A DNA stretch of 63,489 nucleotides, filler included, from Anaerolineae bacterium (GTDB lineage Bacteria; Chloroflexota; Anaerolineae; Epilineales; Epilineaceae), in assembly GCA_029262755.1 (NCBI GenBank). It is 3 parts of 3 records of this genome, joined end to end, with 100 filler letters (N's around TTAATTAATTAA, not from the genome) between each part and the next. Parts side by side here need not be neighbours in the genome. Positions count along the whole stretch, not along the records: positions 1 to 29,318 come from JAJCYU010000380.1; 2 more parts are not named here. One strand, 5' to 3'. Within the stretch, counting starts at the first letter, position 1. Each line of letters opens with the position of its first letter. The notes under the pieces were generated by a model. The model saw only the letters and a list, made by a program, of their open reading frames with translations, did no database searches and was not told where the DNA came from. Both the position numbers and the translations under genes were made by a program. Positions 1,506 to 17,154 of the stretch are shown piece after piece.

Positions 1506-4457
1506 TCAGCTCGCGACAACGTTGACCAGCCGGTCGGGCACGACGATGACCTTGCGCACCTGCTTGCCTTCCAGGTTGCGCTGCACGCCCTCGTCGGCCA
1601 TCGCCAGCGCCTCGATCTCTTCGCGTGATGCCCCGACCGGCACGGTGAGATGGCCGCGCACCTTGCCGTTGACCTGCAGGGCCAGCTCGACCTCGTCCAC
1701 CACCAGCATGGCCGGATCGTGCTCCGGCCACGGCGCCGTGGTGATCGACGGGCTGTGTCCCAGCCGGTGCCAGAGCTCCTCGGCCAGATGCGGCGCCATC
1801 GGCGCAAGCATCTTCGCCATCGGCTCCGCGATCTCGCGCGGCAGGCTATCGGCCTTGACCAGCGCATTGTTGAGCTCGATCAGCGCCGCGATCGCCGTGT
1901 TGACGGACATCGCTTCCATGTCCTCGCCGACCTTGGCGATGGTGGCGTGCAGCAGGCGCCGCTGTGCGTCGGAGGCGGGCTCGTCTACGACCAGCGAGCG
2001 CTCGGCCCCGGCCGAGCCGTCCTCCGCCGGCGGATCCTCCGCCACAAAGTTACGCCACACGCGGTTCAGGAAGCGCCGAATACCCACGATGTCATCGGTG
2101 TTCCAAGGTTTCGACTTGTCCAGCGGCCCCATGTACATCTCGTATAGCCGCAGGGTGTCGCAGCCGTGGCGCTCGATCATCTCGTCGGGCGTGACCATGT
2201 TCTTCAAGCTCTTGCCCATCTTCCCGTATTCGCGCGTCACGGGTCGGTCGTTGTGGAAGTACGCTCCGTCGCGCTCGACGACCTCGTCGGCCTGGACGTA
2301 CACTCCGCGCGCATCCCGGAAAGCGTACGCTTGGATGTAGCCCTGGTTGAACAGCTTGCCGAAGGGCTCCGGCGTGCTCACATGCCCCAGATCGTGGAGC
2401 ACCTTGTGCCAGAAGCGTGCATAGAGCAGGTGCAGCACCGCATGCTCGACGCCGCCGACGTAGAGGTCTACGCCGTGGCCGCCCATCCAATAGTTCTCCG
2501 CGGACGAGCCGACCATCTGTTCCTCGTCGTCCGGACTCAGGTAGCGCAGGTAGTACCAGCACGAGCCGGCCCAGTTGGGCATCGTGTTCAGCTCGCGCGT
2601 GTAGGTCACGCCGTCGATCTCGACCTCGCGCCCTGAACGCGGCGCTCGGCCGAGCGGCGGGCGCGGCGGTGCGTGGGGATCGTCGCTGCGCTCGGGTTGG
2701 AAGTCCTCCATCGGCGGCAGCTCGACGGGCAGATCATCCTCCGCCACCGGCACGATGGAGCCGTCGGGTCCGTGCAGGATCGGGAAGGGCTCGCCCCAAT
2801 AACGCTGTCGGCTGAAGAGCCAGTCGCGCAGCTTGTACTGCACTTCACCGCGACCAAGCCCCTGCGCCTCCAGCCATTCCGTGATCTTCGCCTTGGCCTC
2901 CACCGTCGCGAGCCCGTCGATCGAAACGTCCGGACCCGCCGACTGCATCGCCGTCCCCGTGCCGGCGAAGGACTCCGGCCACTGGGCAACGTGCGCCCGG
3001 TAGTCGGCTCGTATCGTGTCCAGGTCGCCTTCCGGATCGACCGGACGTCCGCCGGCCGCCGCCTGCGCGCGCAGCCAGCCCTCGTCTGGCGTGACCACGG
3101 CGCGCATCGACAGGCCGAAGGCCTTGGCGAACGCGAAGTCACGTGTGTCATGGGCGGGCACGGCCATGATCGCGCCGGTGCCGTAGCCCATCAGCACGTA
3201 GTCCGCGATCCAGATCGGGATCCGTGCATCGTTGACCGGGTTGATCGCGTAGCCGCCGGTGAACACACCGGTCTTGTCCTTGGCATCGGCCTGACGGTCG
3301 ATATCGCTCTTGTGCGCCGTCGCGGCGCGGTAGGCCGCGACGGCCTCCGCCTGTTCCGGCGTCGCGACCCGGTCGACCAACGCGTGCTCCGGACTAAGCA
3401 CCATGTAGGTGGCCCCGAAGAGCGTGTCCGGCCGGGTTGTGAAGACCTCGATGGGCGGCGCTCCTTCGTCCGCGCTCGCGCCGTCGATCGCGAAGGACAC
3501 CCGCGCACCGTGGCTGCGTCCGATCCAGTTGCGCTGCATCTGCCGCACGGCCTCGGGCCAGTCCACGGCGTCCAGATCGTCGATCAGCCGGTCGGCGTAG
3601 GCCGTGATCCGCAGCATCCACTGCTTGAGCGGACGCCGGAAGACCGGAAAGTCGCCGCGCTCGCTTCGTCCTTCTGCCGTGACTTCCTCGTTGGCCAGCA
3701 CCGTGCCGAGACCGGGGCACCAATTCACCGGTACCTCGGCCACGTAGGCCAAGCGCTGCCCGTCCAGCACGATCCGCTGCTCGTCCGCGGAGAGCTCCGA
3801 CCACGCACGTGCGCCGTCGCCCGCCTGCGCCGCGCGGGGCACGGTCGCATCCGCGCCTTCGCCGGCGACGAGACGCTCGCCCGCGGCCAGCGCGGCTTGC
3901 AGCTCGGACACGGGCCGCGCGCCGTCGGCCTCGGGATCGAACCAGCTGCCGAACAGCTGCAGAAAGATCCACTGCGTCCAGCGGTAGTAGCCCGGATCCG
4001 TGGTGGCGAAGGAGCGATCCCAGTCGTAGCCGAGGCTCAGCTGCTTGAGCTGCTCCTTCATCGTCTTGATGTTGGACTCTGTGGTAATGCGCGGGTGCAC
4101 ATTGTGTTCCAGCGCGTACTGCTCGGCGGGCAGACCGAAAGCGTCGAAGCCCATCGGGTGCAGCACGTTGAAGCCGCGCATGCGCTTATAGCGCGCGACG
4201 ATGTCCGTGGCGATATAGCCGAGTGGATGCCCGACGTGCAGCCCCTTGCCCGAGGGGTAGGGGAACATGTCCAGCACGAAGAACTTCGGCCGCGAGGGAT
4301 CGAAGTCGGGATCGCCGGGTCCGGCCGTACGGTAGGTGCCGTTGGCCTCCCACCAATCACGCCACCGGGCCTCGACCGCCTGAACGTCGTAGCCGCCGGT
4401 TGGCGGCGGTGGGGTCGGGGTAGGGGTCGCGCTCGACGCACCGCGCGGCGCGCTCAT
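1506..4457 (-). CDS. leuS: Leucine--tRNA ligase
   Basis: MFPYPSGKGLHVGH (HIGH), GFDAFGLPAE, FTTRPDTLFG editing domain, RDWLFSRQRYWGEP, KMGKS, C-terminal QVNGKVRG. Confidence 0.97.
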   Translation of the reverse strand: MSAPRGASSATPTPTPPPPTGGYDVQAVEARWRDWWEANGTYRTAGPGDPDFDPSRPKFFVLDMFPYPSGKGLHVGHPLGYIATDIVARYKRMRGFNVLHPMGFDAFGLPAEQYALEHNVHPRITTESNIKTMKEQLKQLSLGYDWDRSFATTDPGYYRWTQWIFLQLFGSWFDPEADGARPVSELQAALAAGERLVAGEGADATVPRAAQAGDGARAWSELSADEQRIVLDGQRLAYVAEVPVNWCPGLGTVLANEEVTAEGRSERGDFPVFRRPLKQWMLRITAYADRLIDDLDAVDWPEAVRQMQRNWIGRSHGARVSFAIDGASADEGAPPIEVFTTRPDTLFGATYMVLSPEHALVDRVATPEQAEAVAAYRAATAHKSDIDRQADAKDKTGVFTGGYAINPVNDARIPIWIADYVLMGYGTGAIMAVPAHDTRDFAFAKAFGLSMRAVVTPDEGWLRAQAAAGGRPVDPEGDLDTIRADYRAHVAQWPESFAGTGTAMQSAGPDVSIDGLATVEAKAKITEWLEAQGLGRGEVQYKLRDWLFSRQRYWGEPFPILHGPDGSIVPVAEDDLPVELPPMEDFQPERSDDPHAPPRPPLGRAPRSGREVEIDGVTYTRELNTMPNWAGSCWYYLRYLSPDDEEQMVGSSAENYWMGGHGVDLYVGGVEHAVLHLLYARFWHKVLHDLGHVSTPEPFGKLFNQGYIQAYAFRDARGVYVQADEVVERDGAYFHNDRPVTREYGKMGKSLKNMVTPDEMIERHGCDTLRLYEMYMGPLDKSKPWNTDDIVGIRRFLNRVWRNFVAEDPPAEDGSAGAERSLVVDEPASDAQRRLLHATIAKVGEDMEAMSVNTAIAALIELNNALVKADSLPREIAEPMAKMLAPMAPHLAEELWHRLGHSPSITTAPWPEHDPAMLVVDEVELALQVNGKVRGHLTVPVGASREEIEALAMADEGVQRNLEGKQVRKVIVVPDRLVNVVAS

Positions 4458-11909: not shown

Positions 11910-13412
11910 TCACGCGGTATCGGACACCGTTGGGGCGAGCCGGCCGGACGTGCGCCAATCCCCGGCCAAGCGCACCTGGACCATGTTCGTCGAGCCCGGC
12001 CGGCCGATGGGTTGTCCGGAGGTGATCACGATTCGCTCGCCCTCCTTGACCAGCCCCTGGCGCATGGCGCCCTCGACCACGACCTGCACCATGGCGTCGG
12101 TGTCCCCGTATTCGCCGACGAGCACAGGGACGACGCTCCAGACCAACGCCATGCGCCGGCACGTGCGCGGATCCGTTGTTGCGCCGATCAGCGGCGTCCG
12201 CGGCCGATGGACCGCCACCGCGCGCGGCGTGAGCCCGGACGACGTGGCCGCGATGATCGCGCTGGCCGATGCGCGGCGCGCAATCCCGACCGCGGCCGAG
12301 CAGATCGCGGCATCGATCGAACGGCGCGCCCATGCCTCGCCGCGTTGGCCGAGCCGGCCATAGTCCAGATCTTCTTCCGTTGCGCGCGCGATGTCGGCCA
12401 TCATCTGCACCGACTGGACGGGGAAGCGGCCCACCGCCGTCTCGCCCGATAGCATGACCGCGTCCGTGCCGTCGTAGATCGCGTTCGCGACATCCGAGGT
12501 CTCGGCGCGGGTCGGCTTCGCTTCGCGGATCATCGAGTCCAGCATCTGCGTGGCGGTGATGACGGGCTTACCGGCCTCGTTGGCCATGCGGATGATTCGC
12601 TTCTGCTCCGCCGGAACGCGGGCAGCGCCGATCTCGAGAGCCAGATCGCCGCGCGCGACCATCACCCCGTCGGCACACGCGATGATCTCTTCGATGTTGC
12701 GCACGGCTTCCGGGCGCTCGATCTTGGCGATGATCGGCACATCGCCGTCCTCGGCGCCCTCCGCGGCAATAAATGCGCGCAGGGCCTTGACCTGGGATGC
12801 GTCGCTCACAAACGAGAGCGCGATGTAGTCCACGCCCTGCTCGATGCCGAAGCGAACATGATCGAGGTCCTGTTCGGTCGGCGACATGATCGACAACGAC
12901 GAGTCGGGTAGGTTGACGCCCTTGTGCGACGAAAGGGGGCCGCCGTCCACGACCCGCGTGACGATCCGCCCGCCCTTCGTATCGGTCACACGCAGCTCGA
13001 TACGGCCATCGTCGATCAAGATTCGCTCGTTCACGCGCAAGGTCGAGGCCAGGTAGTGCGCGTAGGCGACCGGGCACCGGCTGCTATCGCCCGGCGTCGG
13101 ATCATGATCGAGCGTAAACGTGTCGCCGTCGGCAAGCATCACGTCGTCGCAGACGTCACCGAGCCGGAGCCGTGGACCTTGGAGGTCCTGCATGATCGCG
13201 ACGACGACGTCCTCCGCGTCAGCCGCAGCGCGTACGTTGGCGATCAACTCCGCCTGTTCCGCACGACTTCCGTGCGAAAAGTTCAGCCGGGCGACGCTCA
13301 TGCCCGCGCGTACCAGAGCCCGAATGGTCGGTACGTCCCGTGTCACGGGGCCGAGGGTGGCCACGATCTTCGTGCGAACGAGGCCTTGCGAAGTAACGAG
13401 CTGCGTCGTCAT
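11910..13412 (-). CDS. pyk: Pyruvate kinase
   Basis: RTKIVATLGP, ARLNFSHG, DLQGP, KGVNLP, IIAKIE, MVARGDL, ATQMLDSM, DAVMLSGETA. Confidence 0.98.
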   Translation of the reverse strand: MTTQLVTSQGLVRTKIVATLGPVTRDVPTIRALVRAGMSVARLNFSHGSRAEQAELIANVRAAADAEDVVVAIMQDLQGPRLRLGDVCDDVMLADGDTFTLDHDPTPGDSSRCPVAYAHYLASTLRVNERILIDDGRIELRVTDTKGGRIVTRVVDGGPLSSHKGVNLPDSSLSIMSPTEQDLDHVRFGIEQGVDYIALSFVSDASQVKALRAFIAAEGAEDGDVPIIAKIERPEAVRNIEEIIACADGVMVARGDLALEIGAARVPAEQKRIIRMANEAGKPVITATQMLDSMIREAKPTRAETSDVANAIYDGTDAVMLSGETAVGRFPVQSVQMMADIARATEEDLDYGRLGQRGEAWARRSIDAAICSAAVGIARRASASAIIAATSSGLTPRAVAVHRPRTPLIGATTDPRTCRRMALVWSVVPVLVGEYGDTDAMVQVVVEGAMRQGLVKEGERIVITSGQPIGRPGSTNMVQVRLAGDWRTSGRLAPTVSDTA

Positions 13413-13539
13413 GGTGGGCTCCAACCGACGGGAGAGACCTTGCTCAAGCAGGGTCCTGTTCTTGTTCTGGGTCAGGGTCTAGTGGGGTCGAGCAGAGATA
13501 TAGAGGGGTAGCGCTTCGGGTCGGCGTGCGGACGTTCTT

Positions 13540-13970
13540 GGTGCTTATTTATCCTTCCACATCTCTTCGCATGAATAAGTATAGGAGTTCGTAGTTGCAG
13601 TAGGGGCTGTGGATTGTGGACAACGGCGGGCCGAATACGAACGCCCCCCATCATCTAGGTGCCCGATTCGCGCCTGACACCGAATGTCGTAGGGTCGGCC
13701 GACCGGCTGTCGGCGCCCGGTTGGGGAGAGATCCGGGAGGGCTGTGGACGGAAAAAATGGGGGTCAATACACCCATGCCCGGGGGATGAAACCAGACAGT
13801 GGAATATGTCGTGGTCGGGACCCGCGAAGACCCGATATTTGGTGGTTCGGTGGGCTAAAACGCCATGAACGAATTGATGAAGGTTATCCCCAATCCTGCA
13901 CCCTTATCCCCACAATACCCACAGTTATCCACAGAACCGGTGTAAAACAGGCGAACATATGTTCGGTATA
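13540..13970. other. oriC: Chromosomal replication origin oriC
   Basis: AT-richer intergenic region directly downstream of dnaA. Perfect DnaA box TTATCCACA at 13925-13933; TTATCCCCA at 13884-13892 and 13904-13912; ATACCCACA at 13915-13923; tandem boxes TGTGGAT/TGTGGACAA at 13608-13623 next to GGGC and trio-like TAG TTG CAG TAG at 13592-13603. Gene orientation switches at this locus. Confidence 0.88.
13952..13965. promoter_or_regulatory. LexA (SOS) box-like palindrome inside the oriC region
   Basis: CGAACATATGTTCG is a perfect palindrome matching the GAAC-N4-GTTC LexA consensus of Firmicutes, Actinobacteria and Chloroflexota. Confidence 0.7.
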
Positions 13971-14050
13971 CAACAGGTAAACACCGCGGCTGGGCCGGTC
14001 CTGCGCCGCGTGTCCTTCATCGCTTGGAACTGGGTTTCTAGGGACCGCAA

Positions 14051-15496
14051 TCAACGAACGTACAGAGACTCTCGAATCTGCATGATATCGCGTCGTAGTT
14101 GCGCATCGCGCTCGACGAGCCGGCTGATCTTTTCGTTGCCGTGCAGGATCGTCGTGTGATCGCGGTTGCCGAGCGCGTTGCCGATCACCGGATAGCTGGA
14201 GTCGGTCTCCTCGCGCATCAGGAACATCACGACCTGGCGCGGCTCCGAGATCCGTGCCGCACGGCCGCGGCCGCGTAGCTCCTCCTCGGACACGTCGTAG
14301 TACGTCGCGACGGCGCTGATGATCCGATCGAGGGTCGGCGGCTCGCGGCGGAGCATGAGGTCGGACAACGCGCGTTCGGCGGTCTCGACGTTCATCGGCA
14401 GCGAGTGGGAGTGCGCATAGGCGATGACGCGGTTGAGCGCGCCTTCCAACTCGCGGACGTTCTGTTGCACCGCCTGCGCGACGAGCTCGAGCACGGTGTC
14501 CGACACGCGGCCGCCCTGCCGCTCGTTCTTGGCGCGCAAGATCGCGATGCGGGTCTCTAGGTCGGGGGGCTCGACGTCGACCTGCAGGCCCCATTGGAAG
14601 CGCGAGCGCAACCGGTCCTCCAGTGTCGAGATCGATTGGGGCGGGCGATCGCTGGTCAAAACGATTTGGCCATCCGCTCCGTGGATCGCGTTGAAGGTGT
14701 GGAAGAACTCCTCCTGGGTGCTCTCCTTGCCCGCGATAAAGTGGATGTCGTCGATCAGCAGCATGTCCGCCGCACGATAGACGCCCCGAAACTCCTCGGT
14801 GCTCTGGGTTCGGATGGCGTTGATCAGGTCGTTGGTGAATTTCTCCGACGAGAGCGCGAGCACGCTGAGCCCGCGTGAAACGGCCGCGTGGCCGATCGCG
14901 TGGAGCAAGTGCGTCTTGCCGAGCCCGACGCCGCCGTAAATGAACAGTGGGTTGTAGCGCTGCGCCGGAAACTCGGCCACCGCCTGTGCGGCCGCGTGGG
15001 CGAGTCGGTTCCCGCCGCCCACGACGAAGGTGTCGAATGTATAGCGTGGGTTGATCGCCGGGCCGCCCGGCACGCCGAAGCGCTGCGGCGGTGCGCTCGG
15101 CAGGCTCTGCTGCTGGAAGCCTCCGCGCCCCGCGTTCTTCGCGGTTTTTTTCGCGCCGGCTTCGTTGCCGGAGGCTCCACGGTCGCCCGTGTTGGTGTAC
15201 GTTGGGTTCATGATCGCGGGTGGGGGAGGGGCGGCTGCCAGCTCTTGCACCAGGAATACGCAGCGTACGGGCGCGCCGAACACGGCGGCCAGCGCCTTGT
15301 TGAGCGCATCGCCCAGCCGGCTGACCAGCCAATCACGCGCCCTATCGCTGGGGACCGACACGATCAACGTGTCTTCATCGAGGGTCAGCGCGTGCGTCGG
15401 CTCAAGCCAGGCGTCGTAGGTTGCGCGGGTCAACTGCTGGCGAAGATCGTCGAGGGCCGTCTGCCACAGGTTCGTTGCCGTGATGGTCTGGCTCAT
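14051..15496 (-). CDS. dnaA: Chromosomal replication initiator DnaA
   Basis: YTFDTFVVG..N, YNPLFIYGGVGLGKTHL (Walker A), LLIDDIHF (Walker B), QEEFFHTFN, RLRSRF.WGL, RDHTTILHG domain IV. Confidence 0.98.
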   Translation of the reverse strand: MSQTITATNLWQTALDDLRQQLTRATYDAWLEPTHALTLDEDTLIVSVPSDRARDWLVSRLGDALNKALAAVFGAPVRCVFLVQELAAAPPPPAIMNPTYTNTGDRGASGNEAGAKKTAKNAGRGGFQQQSLPSAPPQRFGVPGGPAINPRYTFDTFVVGGGNRLAHAAAQAVAEFPAQRYNPLFIYGGVGLGKTHLLHAIGHAAVSRGLSVLALSSEKFTNDLINAIRTQSTEEFRGVYRAADMLLIDDIHFIAGKESTQEEFFHTFNAIHGADGQIVLTSDRPPQSISTLEDRLRSRFQWGLQVDVEPPDLETRIAILRAKNERQGGRVSDTVLELVAQAVQQNVRELEGALNRVIAYAHSHSLPMNVETAERALSDLMLRREPPTLDRIISAVATYYDVSEEELRGRGRAARISEPRQVVMFLMREETDSSYPVIGNALGNRDHTTILHGNEKISRLVERDAQLRRDIMQIRESLYVR

Positions 15497-15872
15497 GGTG
15501 CCTCGATTTTGCTACGTGCACCCGAGAAGGGTTCGAAAAAATTGGCGCAACAAGACACAACCAGCGGCGCGCTCCCAAACAGTGGGACGGCGAACCGCGG
15601 CAAGGCCATCGGCCGTTCCTCGACATTCTCGGTTGAAGGATGGTGCGGGCGGAGACAGTGCTGCAGGGCACGCGGCCAAGGCATGAGCCAGCGGGCGATC
15701 CCCTTGTGGAGCTCTCTTCCGGCACGAAAGAGCCCATCGTTCACGTAGGTCGGGCGGAGACCCAGATCTTCGGTGAGTCTCCCCCGAGGCGCCCATCCAA
15801 ACCCCGGTTGTGGCAGCGACGAGGCGATTCTAATCGGGCGCTAAGAGGGCGGCAAGAGGCCTGTTTTTGCCA

Positions 15873-15899
15873 ATAGTATCGAACACGTGTTCTATACAA
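15873..15899 (-). promoter_or_regulatory. Putative dnaA promoter with a LexA box between the -35 and -10 elements
   Basis: Minus strand reads TTGTAT-AGAACACGTGTTCGA-TACTAT. The box CGAACACGTGTTCT is at 15880-15893. The spacer is short (15 bp), so the promoter call is less certain than the box. Confidence 0.6.
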
Positions 15900-16113
15900 T
15901 ATGTAGCGGTCGAGACGGGATTCAACCCCCTCCATGTCGTAGGTCGCGCAGACTCGGTTGGGAGCGCCAAAACCCGTCCAAAACTTTAAGCAAAATCGCG
16001 CAAACGCGATTCACGCAGTGATTGCGCGACGCGCACCCCTTCTTATAATGTCGCGTCGACCCCGCCCCGGTCTTGGACCGGGGTCCCTTGTTGCAACAGC
16101 AGGAGGTGCCAGC

Positions 16114-17154
16114 ATGACAACACGGGACCAGGGCGAGGTGATGATCGAAGTCGATCAGCTCACTCGCCTCTATGGTCCGGCGCCCGCGCTACAGGATGTC
16201 TCGTTCCGCGCTCACCGTGGCGAGATCGTAGGCTTCCTAGGGCCGAATGGCGCCGGCAAGACCACCACGATGCGTATCCTCACCGGCTATCTGCCGCCGA
16301 CGAGCGGTCGCGCTTCGATCGCGGGACACGATGTGGTCGAGGACTCCATGGCCGCGCGACGCAACGTCGGATACCTACCCGAATCCACCCCGCTCTATCC
16401 CGAGATGACGGTTTGGAGCTACCTGGAATTCATGGCCCGACTGCGTGGTGTCGCTGACCGCGACAACGCGATCGAGCGGGCCATGGAGCGCGTCGACCTG
16501 AACGATCGAGCCCACCAGCAAATCGGGCGCCTGTCGAAGGGCCTCCGCCAGCGGGTGGGTATCGCGCAGGCGGTGTTGCACGATCCGCCCGTGATCATCC
16601 TCGACGAGCCGACGATCGGTCTCGATCCGCGGCAGATCCGCGAGGTGCGCGCGCTCATCCAAGAGCTGCGCGGCGACCACACGGTCATCCTGTCGACCCA
16701 CATCCTGCCCGAAGCCCAACAGGTCTGCGATCGTGTATTGATCATCCATCGCGGACAGATCGTGGCGGAGGACGCGCCGGGCAAGCTGACGTCGCAACTA
16801 CCCGGTGGGCAGCGCGTGCGCCTCTCGCTCGGGCAAGGCGCCAACGGCGTCGCGAGCGTGATCGATGGCGTGGCCGGTGTGAAGGGCGTCCGCGACGAGG
16901 GCGGTGGAGCCTACACGATCGAGCTCGAAACAGGAGCCGATCCCCGTGCCGAGATCGCGCGTGCGGTCGTGCAGAACGACTGGCACATACTCGAGCTCAC
17001 ACCACAAGGGATGAGCTTGGAAGACGTCTTCCTAGAACTCACCCGCGAGGATCTGGAACGAGACCCCGCCGCGGCCTTCGACGATGCAGACGAGTTCGAA
17101 GACGCAGACGGTAACGAGGACGAGTACGAGGAGGAGGGGGAGCTCGATGAGTAA
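16114..17154 (+). CDS. ABC transporter ATP-binding protein (GldA-like)
   Basis: AGGAGG RBS, GPNGAGKTT, LSKGLRQRVG, ILDEPTIGLDP, STHIL, acidic C-terminal tail. Confidence 0.93.
   Translation: MTTRDQGEVMIEVDQLTRLYGPAPALQDVSFRAHRGEIVGFLGPNGAGKTTTMRILTGYLPPTSGRASIAGHDVVEDSMAARRNVGYLPESTPLYPEMTVWSYLEFMARLRGVADRDNAIERAMERVDLNDRAHQQIGRLSKGLRQRVGIAQAVLHDPPVIILDEPTIGLDPRQIREVRALIQELRGDHTVILSTHILPEAQQVCDRVLIIHRGQIVAEDAPGKLTSQLPGGQRVRLSLGQGANGVASVIDGVAGVKGVRDEGGGAYTIELETGADPRAEIARAVVQNDWHILELTPQGMSLEDVFLELTREDLERDPAAAFDDADEFEDADGNEDEYEEEGELDE

Follow-up and report, generated by a model that had tools for sequence, protein, structure and literature searches.

The window, by which we mean the whole analysed stretch of 63,489 nt (three joined parts of one genome, filler included), derives from the draft genome of an Anaerolineae bacterium (GCA_029262755.1; 5.06 Mb, 428 contigs, 66.8% G+C), and its positions 1-29318, which correspond to contig C380, carry the replication initiator gene dnaA. 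We report that dnaA is flanked by two sequences resembling operators of the SOS repressor LexA, box 1 on the side of the predicted replication origin and box 2 upstream of the gene. The dnaA gene (14051-15496, minus strand; 481 aa) has the Pfam domains DnaA_N, Bac_DnaA (3.1e-68) and Bac_DnaA_C, and its best named matches in a protein search were Chloroflexota metagenome-assembled genomes (identity at most 55% among the matches listed). Downstream of dnaA lies a 626-nt oriC-like spacer (13425-14050) with a cluster of DnaA boxes and no supported open reading frame (ORF), followed by a pyruvate kinase gene (11910-13424, minus strand; Pfam PK and PK_C), which rather than dnaN is the next gene past the origin and is syntenic in 10 relatives' loci. 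On the other side, a 617-nt spacer separates dnaA from a divergent ABC-transporter ATPase gene (16114-17154, plus strand; Pfam ABC_tran) that is preceded by TATAAT at 16044-16049 and is syntenic in 12 relatives' loci.

Box 1 (CGAACATATGTTCG, 13952-13965) is a perfect 14-nt palindrome located 86-99 nt downstream of the dnaA stop codon, between a terminator-like hairpin of dnaA and the first DnaA box, and separated by 18 nt from the perfect DnaA box TTATCCACA (13925-13933). Box 2 (CGAACACGTGTTCT, 15880-15893), the core of which (GAACACGTGTTC) is a perfect palindrome that extends to GTATnGAAC...GTTCnATAC, is positioned 384-397 nt upstream of the dnaA ATG and 1,928 nt from box 1. Both boxes have perfect GAAC-N4-GTTC cores, also match the extended palindrome GAACA-N2-TGTTC, and are each preceded by TTGTATA on the minus strand, with an offset from TTGTAT to the core that differs by 2 nt (TTGTAT-A-GAAC vs TTGTAT-ACC-GAAC). 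Moreover, the 12-nt flanks on this strand, ACATATTGTATA directly before box 2 (15893-15904) and ACCTGTTGTATA before box 1 (13967-13978), are identical at 10 of 12 positions, and in the relatives the sequence before the dyad reads ACATnTTGTGTA or TTGCGTC. The box positions, the 18-bp gap to the DnaA box and the TTGTATA on the minus strand had been given by the first-pass annotation and are right in every particular.

The lexA gene of this genome is on contig C205, and its product has the domains LexA_DNA_bind and Peptidase_S24; among solved structures it is closest to Thermotoga LexA (3k2z; E 2.4e-31), with AAG, GNSM and LKRF in the alignment. Judging from these features it is predicted to be a canonical LexA capable of self-cleavage, the only one of this genome. 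A further lexA, which has a GAACAAGTGTTT box, is present on a 2.4-kb contig of low G+C (C90; L001), and this contig looks like foreign DNA, i.e. contamination from another organism. Non-coding GAAC-N4-GTTC cores precede lexA on C205, uvrA, radA, dnaE, genes for an MrfA-like helicase and for HerA/DUF6909, two SLT-domain genes and glyoxalase/bleomycin-resistance-like genes, while the recA box has one mismatch. Using 15 sites of the genome, including those of lexA, recA, uvrA, radA and dnaE and with the two boxes under study excluded, we derived a LexA matrix of 20 nt; outside the training set its high scorers precede ssb, recN, a Y-family polymerase gene and Tex, and hence the matrix recovers the textbook SOS regulon. 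Genome-wide, box 2 scored 24.0 bits (rank 5) and box 1 21.8 bits (rank 10), to be compared with 21.1 for radA, 20.6 for uvrA, 19.8 for recA and 17.5 for lexA. A check proposed in the first-pass annotation thus supports its reading: the lexA, recA and other SOS promoters of this genome use GAAC-N4-GTTC, and both boxes are among the top ten.

Sites of at least 20 bits numbered 16 in the genome vs a mean of 0.6 and a maximum of 1 in five local-composition shuffles (300-nt blocks), those of at least 18 bits 24 vs 2.2, and at 21.8 bits or more approximately 0.2 chance sites are expected per genome. The bare core is found twice in the window vs 0.82 expected; taken alone it is not significant there, since 21 of 100 shuffles had at least two, and the genome total is 60, where our own arithmetic from base composition predicts roughly 48. 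The extended form GAACA-N2-TGTTC has seven copies in the genome, all outside genes, and boxes 1 and 2 are two of these. As a base-rate set only, we used 80 distant dnaA loci from the protein search mentioned above (other Chloroflexota, Bacillota, Actinomycetota and others), and in all of these listed matches the 700 nt upstream and the 500 nt downstream of dnaA are free of perfect cores. On these scores and counts, we consider that the two boxes are not chance occurrences and fit the genome's own LexA motif.

The conservation of the boxes was studied in an order sampled by 35 genomes, this one included. The dnaA loci of 29 relatives were compared, none of them from the same genus as this genome, and upstream regions were added for five more genomes of family f5; the window's own family, f1, is represented by 16 dnaA loci including that of this genome. 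The dnaA promoter (15827-15855, minus strand) consists of a -35 element TTGCCG (15850-15855), a 17-nt spacer and a -10 element TAGAAT (15827-15832). This is the only sigma-70-like site reported by the promoter scan in 13300-16300, it leaves a leader of 331 nt, and a promoter of this type (TTGCGG, 17-18 nt, TAGAAT or TACAAT) is present at all 16 f1 dnaA loci. Its assignment to dnaA is based on genus g9, because there the dnaA ATG follows the -10 element TAGAAT by 8 nt (G014, L032; G008, L034); the g9 dnaA mRNA is probably leaderless, and both of these loci are without a LexA-type dyad. Box 2 ends 25 nt from the -35 element, with its centre approximately 31 nt upstream of the 5' edge of this element. 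Two other hexamer pairs on the dnaA strand, TTGTAT-15-TACTAT and TTGAAT-16-CATATT, for which box 2 would fall within the spacer or at the start point of transcription, were rejected: the promoter scan did not report them and their hexamers are not conserved.

In family f1 a dyad of the type GnAC-N4-GTTC with at most two core mismatches is present at 14 of 16 loci, 24-26 nt upstream of TTGCGG-17/18-TAGAAT (36 nt in G009). The core is perfect in three (this genome, G009 and G016) and has one mismatch in eight; four of the latter carry GCAC (G003, G006, G010 and G013) and the others GTAC, GATC, GGAC or a right half GTGC. An alignment of the 14 dyads revealed that the outer G and C of each half-site are invariant, that the right half GTTC is intact in 12, and that the N4 spacer is variable, a pattern which at the sequence level is as expected for the site of a dimeric helix-turn-helix protein. 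All 10 genomes of family f5 have a dyad with two or fewer mismatches (five with at most one, five with two), here adjoining the -35 element, 2-3 nt upstream of TTGCG(T/C)-17-TACAAT. These f5 dyads have the form GAAC (or GGAC, GATA)-N4-GTGC/GACC/GGCC/GTTT/GTTC and include GAACATTTGACC, and the element abutting the f5 dnaA promoter reads GAACATTTGACCGA. In approximately 115 kb of relatives' dnaA loci the matrix gave 14 hits of at least 12 bits, of which 12 are at the place homologous to box 2, and the remaining two lie 779 nt upstream and within dnaA, respectively. Nothing of at least 12 bits was detected at four more distant loci of the order. The module also persists where the divergent ABC gene is absent, i.e. 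in G006 and all 10 f5 genomes, and by its distribution the conserved module goes with dnaA and not with the ABC neighbour. Among public sequencing runs, none of RNA was listed as containing this DNA, and contigs of four DNA runs were compared with it, X1 being the probable source sample. A strain that is approximately 93% alike (DNA run X3) covers 13400-13936 and 14021-14208, thus neither box, and is therefore uninformative on their conservation.

Corroboration comes from the relatives' own lexA promoters. In all 10 f1 promoters shown, the -35 element is followed after 2 nt by a perfect GAAC-N4-GTTC, the -35 being TTGAC(A/T) in nine and a weaker hexamer in G009, and seven of the 10 have a second box, GCAC-N4-GTTC. 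In f5 the lexA promoters carry TTAGCACATTTGACCGA upstream of the -35 element, nearly identical to the f5 dnaA element given above. Therefore, operators upstream of -35 and variant half-sites are in use at lexA itself, and the half-site GCAC is, on this comparative evidence, a real operator form.

Two further motifs were noted in the flanks of dnaA. One, CTTAAAGTTT (15981-15990, minus strand), is located approximately 165 nt upstream of the dnaA -10 element and just after a 7-bp hairpin (15997-16017); it is kept at this distance in 13 of the 14 f1 loci where the motif and the -10 element were both found, and occurs as variants in f5. The other, CYAC-N-A-N-AT, is not a DnaA box and is found in oriC (13684-13692, 13806-13814 and 13837-13845) as well as upstream of dnaA (15934-15942; all minus strand), with a further copy at 15899-15907 directly before box 2. 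Relatives have this motif in both flanks of dnaA, e.g. CACCACAAGATGT.

Turning to the origin side, the spacer downstream of dnaA contains a trio of DnaA boxes on the minus strand (13884-13933), the perfect one adjacent to box 1 and two with one mismatch each (13904-13912 and 13884-13892), spaced by 21 and 20 nt, and an opposite DnaA box, TGTGGACAA (13615-13623, plus strand; one mismatch). The same trio directly downstream of dnaA is found at 25 of the 29 relatives' loci, and the spacer is therefore regarded as the origin region of the whole order; in many relatives an equivalent opposite DnaA box is present 190-330 nt past the trio. A DnaA-box cluster that lies beside dnaA and is conserved in relatives is what is expected of oriC, and we predict that the spacer is one. 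Between the dnaA stop codon and the first DnaA box there is a GC-rich hairpin followed by UUUACCUGUUGUAU (13979-14015, minus strand), which by its fold is the likelier dnaA terminator; in the relatives this stretch is approximately 15-120 nt long, variable in sequence and usually contains a hairpin. When one metagenome was scanned with an oriC pattern, the only locus detected was of the G007 type and lacked box 1. A search of the 35 genomes for a perfect core 5-35 nt from the DnaA box TGTGGATAAC gave an origin-side match in this genome alone. The other four matches all belong to genus g8 and to a different locus, the promoter of an SLT-domain gene with two LexA-type boxes, 13 nt and then the perfect DnaA box TGTGGATAAC (G013, G007, G016 and G015; L160-L163). 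In L161 these boxes are at approximately 1460-1535 and Pfam supports the SLT domain; the arrangement hints at joint control of this g8 gene by LexA and DnaA.

LexA probably binds box 1, given the perfect palindromic form of this site and a score that exceeds those of the recA and lexA operators, at a level where so few chance sites are expected per genome. Most likely it represents a recent lineage-specific gain and a candidate operator. The proposal that dnaA is bracketed by LexA boxes and under SOS control thus holds in part: the boxes are of the LexA type and the upstream one is kept in position and dyad form in two families, but the oriC-side one is confined to this genome, and consequently the bracketing is not a conserved design.

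Taken together, we think it rather probable that both boxes are genuine operators of the genome's LexA, box 2 being ancestral in the dnaA control region and box 1 a lineage-specific acquisition. Box 2 is most likely an ancestral operator that would make dnaA transcription SOS-responsive. What the analysis shows directly are the sequences, their matrix scores, the regulon, the conservation and the anatomy of promoter and origin, whereas it is inferred that LexA binds, which way it regulates and whether initiation is affected. LexA bound at box 2 would lower dnaA transcription by occluding the -35 element or upstream contacts of RNA polymerase: in f5 it would overlap the -35 region, and in f1 its action would come from a position near -67, where it might block the contacts that the polymerase makes upstream, as suggested by the T-tract that several relatives have between the dyad and -35. 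Upon DNA damage, RecA-stimulated cleavage of LexA would then increase the supply of DnaA. Box 1 could act as a roadblock to read-through from dnaA into the origin, or as a modulator of DnaA loading.

A number of observations weigh against this reading. The f1 operator, with its centre near -67, is clear of the -35, the -10 and the start site of the only good promoter, and this is an unusual place for simple repression; activators, too, classically bind at about -67, which makes the direction of regulation the weakest step. Three of the 16 f1 dyads have two mismatches and two loci (G008 and G014) have no dyad, and at the five family f4 dnaA loci nothing of at least 12 bits was detected. For box 1, no counterpart of at least 12 bits is present at any of the 29 relatives' loci, none of which is from the same genus, and the promoter scan found no recognisable promoter beside it on either strand. 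Finally, the matrix sites were chosen by us, partly for their operator-like look, and related genomes are not independent samples.

That box 1 has no LexA function, being either a palindrome that arose by chance or a short hairpin of the 3' end or terminator of dnaA, is in our view rather unlikely, although its absence from the relatives and the lack of a promoter beside it point that way, as do the variable length and sequence of this usually hairpin-bearing spacer and a scan that lists box 1 as a weak terminator-like site (5-bp stem, tail CCTGTTTTAC). Set against this are the low chance expectation for a site of its score and its location beside dnaA: only two spacers adjoin this gene, and a conserved box is already present there. 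Moreover, the much stronger hairpin just upstream (13979-14015) is a better candidate for the terminator, folding of the 3' region as a whole does not surpass that of shuffles (z 0.53), and the 12-nt flank of box 1 resembles that of box 2 to the extent described above. Equally doubtful is the more far-reaching notion that LexA regulates initiation directly, with box 2 gating the dnaA promoter and box 1 acting at oriC, as an SOS-to-origin checkpoint.

We regard it as quite unlikely that box 2 serves as a LexA operator for a transcript from the opposite strand, either the ABC-2-type exporter operon or a short RNA to the right of the box. A divergent ABC ATPase gene adjoins dnaA in 12 relatives' loci, all of them in f1, so that synteny by itself does not assign box 2. 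On the plus strand the box is followed by a -10-like hexamer, either TACAAT (GTTC-ta-TACAAT) or, after 4 nt, CAATAT, and most f1 relatives have CAAnAT 4 nt past the dyad, which is the box-to--10 geometry of the relatives' lexA promoters. However, such a promoter lacks a conserved -35 element, and the ABC operon has its own conserved TATAAT, approximately 150 nt from box 2. The distance of the dyad to the dnaA promoter, on the other hand, is fixed, and the dyad is kept in genomes without the ABC gene (G006 and the 10 f5 genomes). The stretch that such a transcript would cover has no conserved ORF (tblastn with every stop-to-stop frame of at least 25 aa in the dnaA-ABC spacer as query, searched against the upstream regions of 29 relatives; best E 0.02), no conserved fold (alifold energy 0.0 on both strands for the block from CTTAAAGTTT to the box, 12 sequences) and no Rfam match; in 13300-16300 nothing was near its gathering score, AsdA reaching 22.9 bits vs a cut-off of 52 and falling inside dnaA. 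A tRNA scan found none. In the ABC operon, a GC-rich hairpin (CCCCGGTCTTGGACCGGGG) is located in the leader (16050-16113), downstream of TATAAT and ahead of the ribosome-binding site.

Alternatively, the dyad might be the target of a different dimeric factor or an architectural element of an origin in two parts, in which case the resemblance to a LexA box in this genome would be secondary. Consistent with this, the right half GTTC alone is nearly invariant in the relatives whereas the left half varies at positions 2-3, and the dyad is embedded in a block of motifs with fixed spacing, comprising CTTAAAGTTT and the CYAC-N-A-N-AT repeats that are found in oriC too; moreover, the flank differs from a DnaA box at a single position in G007/G013 and G030. 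We nevertheless judge this very unlikely. The variant forms GCAC and GTGC are exactly those at the relatives' lexA promoters, both boxes are perfect in this genome and outrank most SOS operators of proven type, and no other regulator with this motif was indicated in our analysis. The first-pass suggestion that LexA at both boxes loops out the dnaA gene can practically be dismissed, its sole support being two strong boxes, one on each side of dnaA: the sites are approximately 1.9 kb apart, nothing suggests that LexA dimers associate (to our knowledge LexA acts as a dimer without higher-order bridging), and two-site looping is not a conserved function, given that box 1 is unique to this genome and box 2 ancestral.

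The scan for LexA-type boxes also bears on other genes. Among the replication genes, dnaB and dnaN of this genome have no LexA box of at least 8 bits (dnaB is split across contig ends), whereas a LexA-type box is present at dnaE and a weak one at gyrB. At C156:3833 (L009) a LexA-type box is found 18 nt ahead of the start of a DNA polymerase III alpha gene, the product of which (1599 aa) is unusually long for DnaE. The genome's strongest LexA boxes belong to two paralogous SLT-domain (lytic transglycosylase) genes, C17:6385-6423 (L004) and C160:5797-5808 (L010), in the form of tandem boxes inside a TTGACA...TATCTT promoter and of a single box of 30.5 bits. These genes may be SOS-induced effectors of the cell wall or of division, a case that resembles the LexA-controlled wall hydrolases of mycobacteria. 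Tandem LexA boxes are also located within a TTGACT...TATCCT promoter at C46:3300-3338 (L006), before a 222-aa ORF (3405-4073) for which no Pfam match was found. Finally, several glyoxalase/bleomycin-resistance-like genes are positioned beside LexA-type boxes at C259:2492, C201:2998, C411:3486 and C16:20521-20919, which suggests that defence against DNA-cleaving antibiotics belongs to the SOS regulon here.

If the operator at dnaA is real and conserved, it would constitute a direct link from the SOS repressor to the initiator gene in an uncultured Chloroflexota order, while the known links from DNA damage to initiation are mostly indirect (DnaA as a transcription factor, Sda, proteolysis and SOS-induced division inhibitors). 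The extra box at oriC in this genome would provide a natural contrast between one site and two sites. Should the checkpoint reading be true, both the amount of available initiator and the condition of the origin would depend on whether LexA is bound or has been lost in the SOS response; we found no description in the literature of such a direct SOS-to-origin checkpoint in bacteria. If the link is false, then a perfect and conserved LexA dyad can sit at about -67, which bears on the prediction of regulons from motifs only. In the literature that we found, supplementary regulon tables aside, there is no LexA site at a dnaA promoter or at oriC, and the accessible parts of PMC2921402, PMC6473078, PMC3323433 and PMC8203912 contain no link between LexA and dnaA. 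That dnaA and oriC are not standard LexA targets, as the first-pass annotation had it, agrees with this literature, an example being E. coli dnaA, which according to the accessible part of PMC12000880 has no LexA site.

With respect to known systems, the boxes are of the ordinary GAAC-N4-GTTC operator class, and it is the target that is unusual. LexA operators of this type are used in Bacillus, Clostridium, Mycobacterium and Dehalococcoides. The operator of the Gram-positive-type LexA (DinR), the 'Cheo box', has the same GAAC-N4-GTTC dyad with a variable 4-nt spacer, and the regulon described here is also like that of the DinR type (lexA, recA, uvrA, recN, ssb and a dinB-type polymerase). In contrast to DinR-type operators, the targets in this case are the dnaA promoter region and the origin spacer, and box 2 is positioned upstream of the -35 element, without covering this element, the -10 or the start site. 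Regulators such as CtrA in Caulobacter, Spo0A in Bacillus and MtrA in Mycobacterium have binding sites inside the origins of these bacteria. If functional, box 1 would likewise be the site of a global regulator in or beside a DnaA-box cluster; however, the CtrA, Spo0A and MtrA sites are conserved and overlap or interleave with essential origin elements, whereas box 1 is separated from the trio by 18 nt, on the side facing the dnaA gene, and is not conserved.

The operator tables for Clostridioides difficile also give GAAC....GTTC, and there LexA is reported to interact with the presumed promoter region of soj (TTGAACTTTAGTTTCT at -226), a gene described as a regulator of DnaA-dependent initiation (PMC4234289, accessible part). 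In that respect the soj site resembles the boxes reported here as a LexA target bearing on DnaA-dependent initiation. However, the link in C. difficile is indirect, through Soj and not through DnaA or oriC, and the soj site is imperfect and missing in some ribotypes, while in this genome both boxes are perfect, one of them being kept in two families. E. coli dnaA is mildly induced by ultraviolet light independently of LexA, and its promoter is without a LexA site (PMC12000880, accessible part); as far as this source goes, the present case differs in that a LexA-type operator appears to be built into the dnaA control region. There is also a likeness in layout to the E. coli uvrB promoter, which is co-regulated by DnaA and LexA (PMC6015884, accessible part): LexA and DnaA boxes adjoin both where box 1 meets the DnaA-box trio and in the promoter of the g8 SLT-domain gene. 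As described in that part of the source, uvrB is a repair-gene target with DnaA as the additional regulator, whereas at the locus reported here the DnaA boxes are those of the predicted origin and LexA would be the additional factor.

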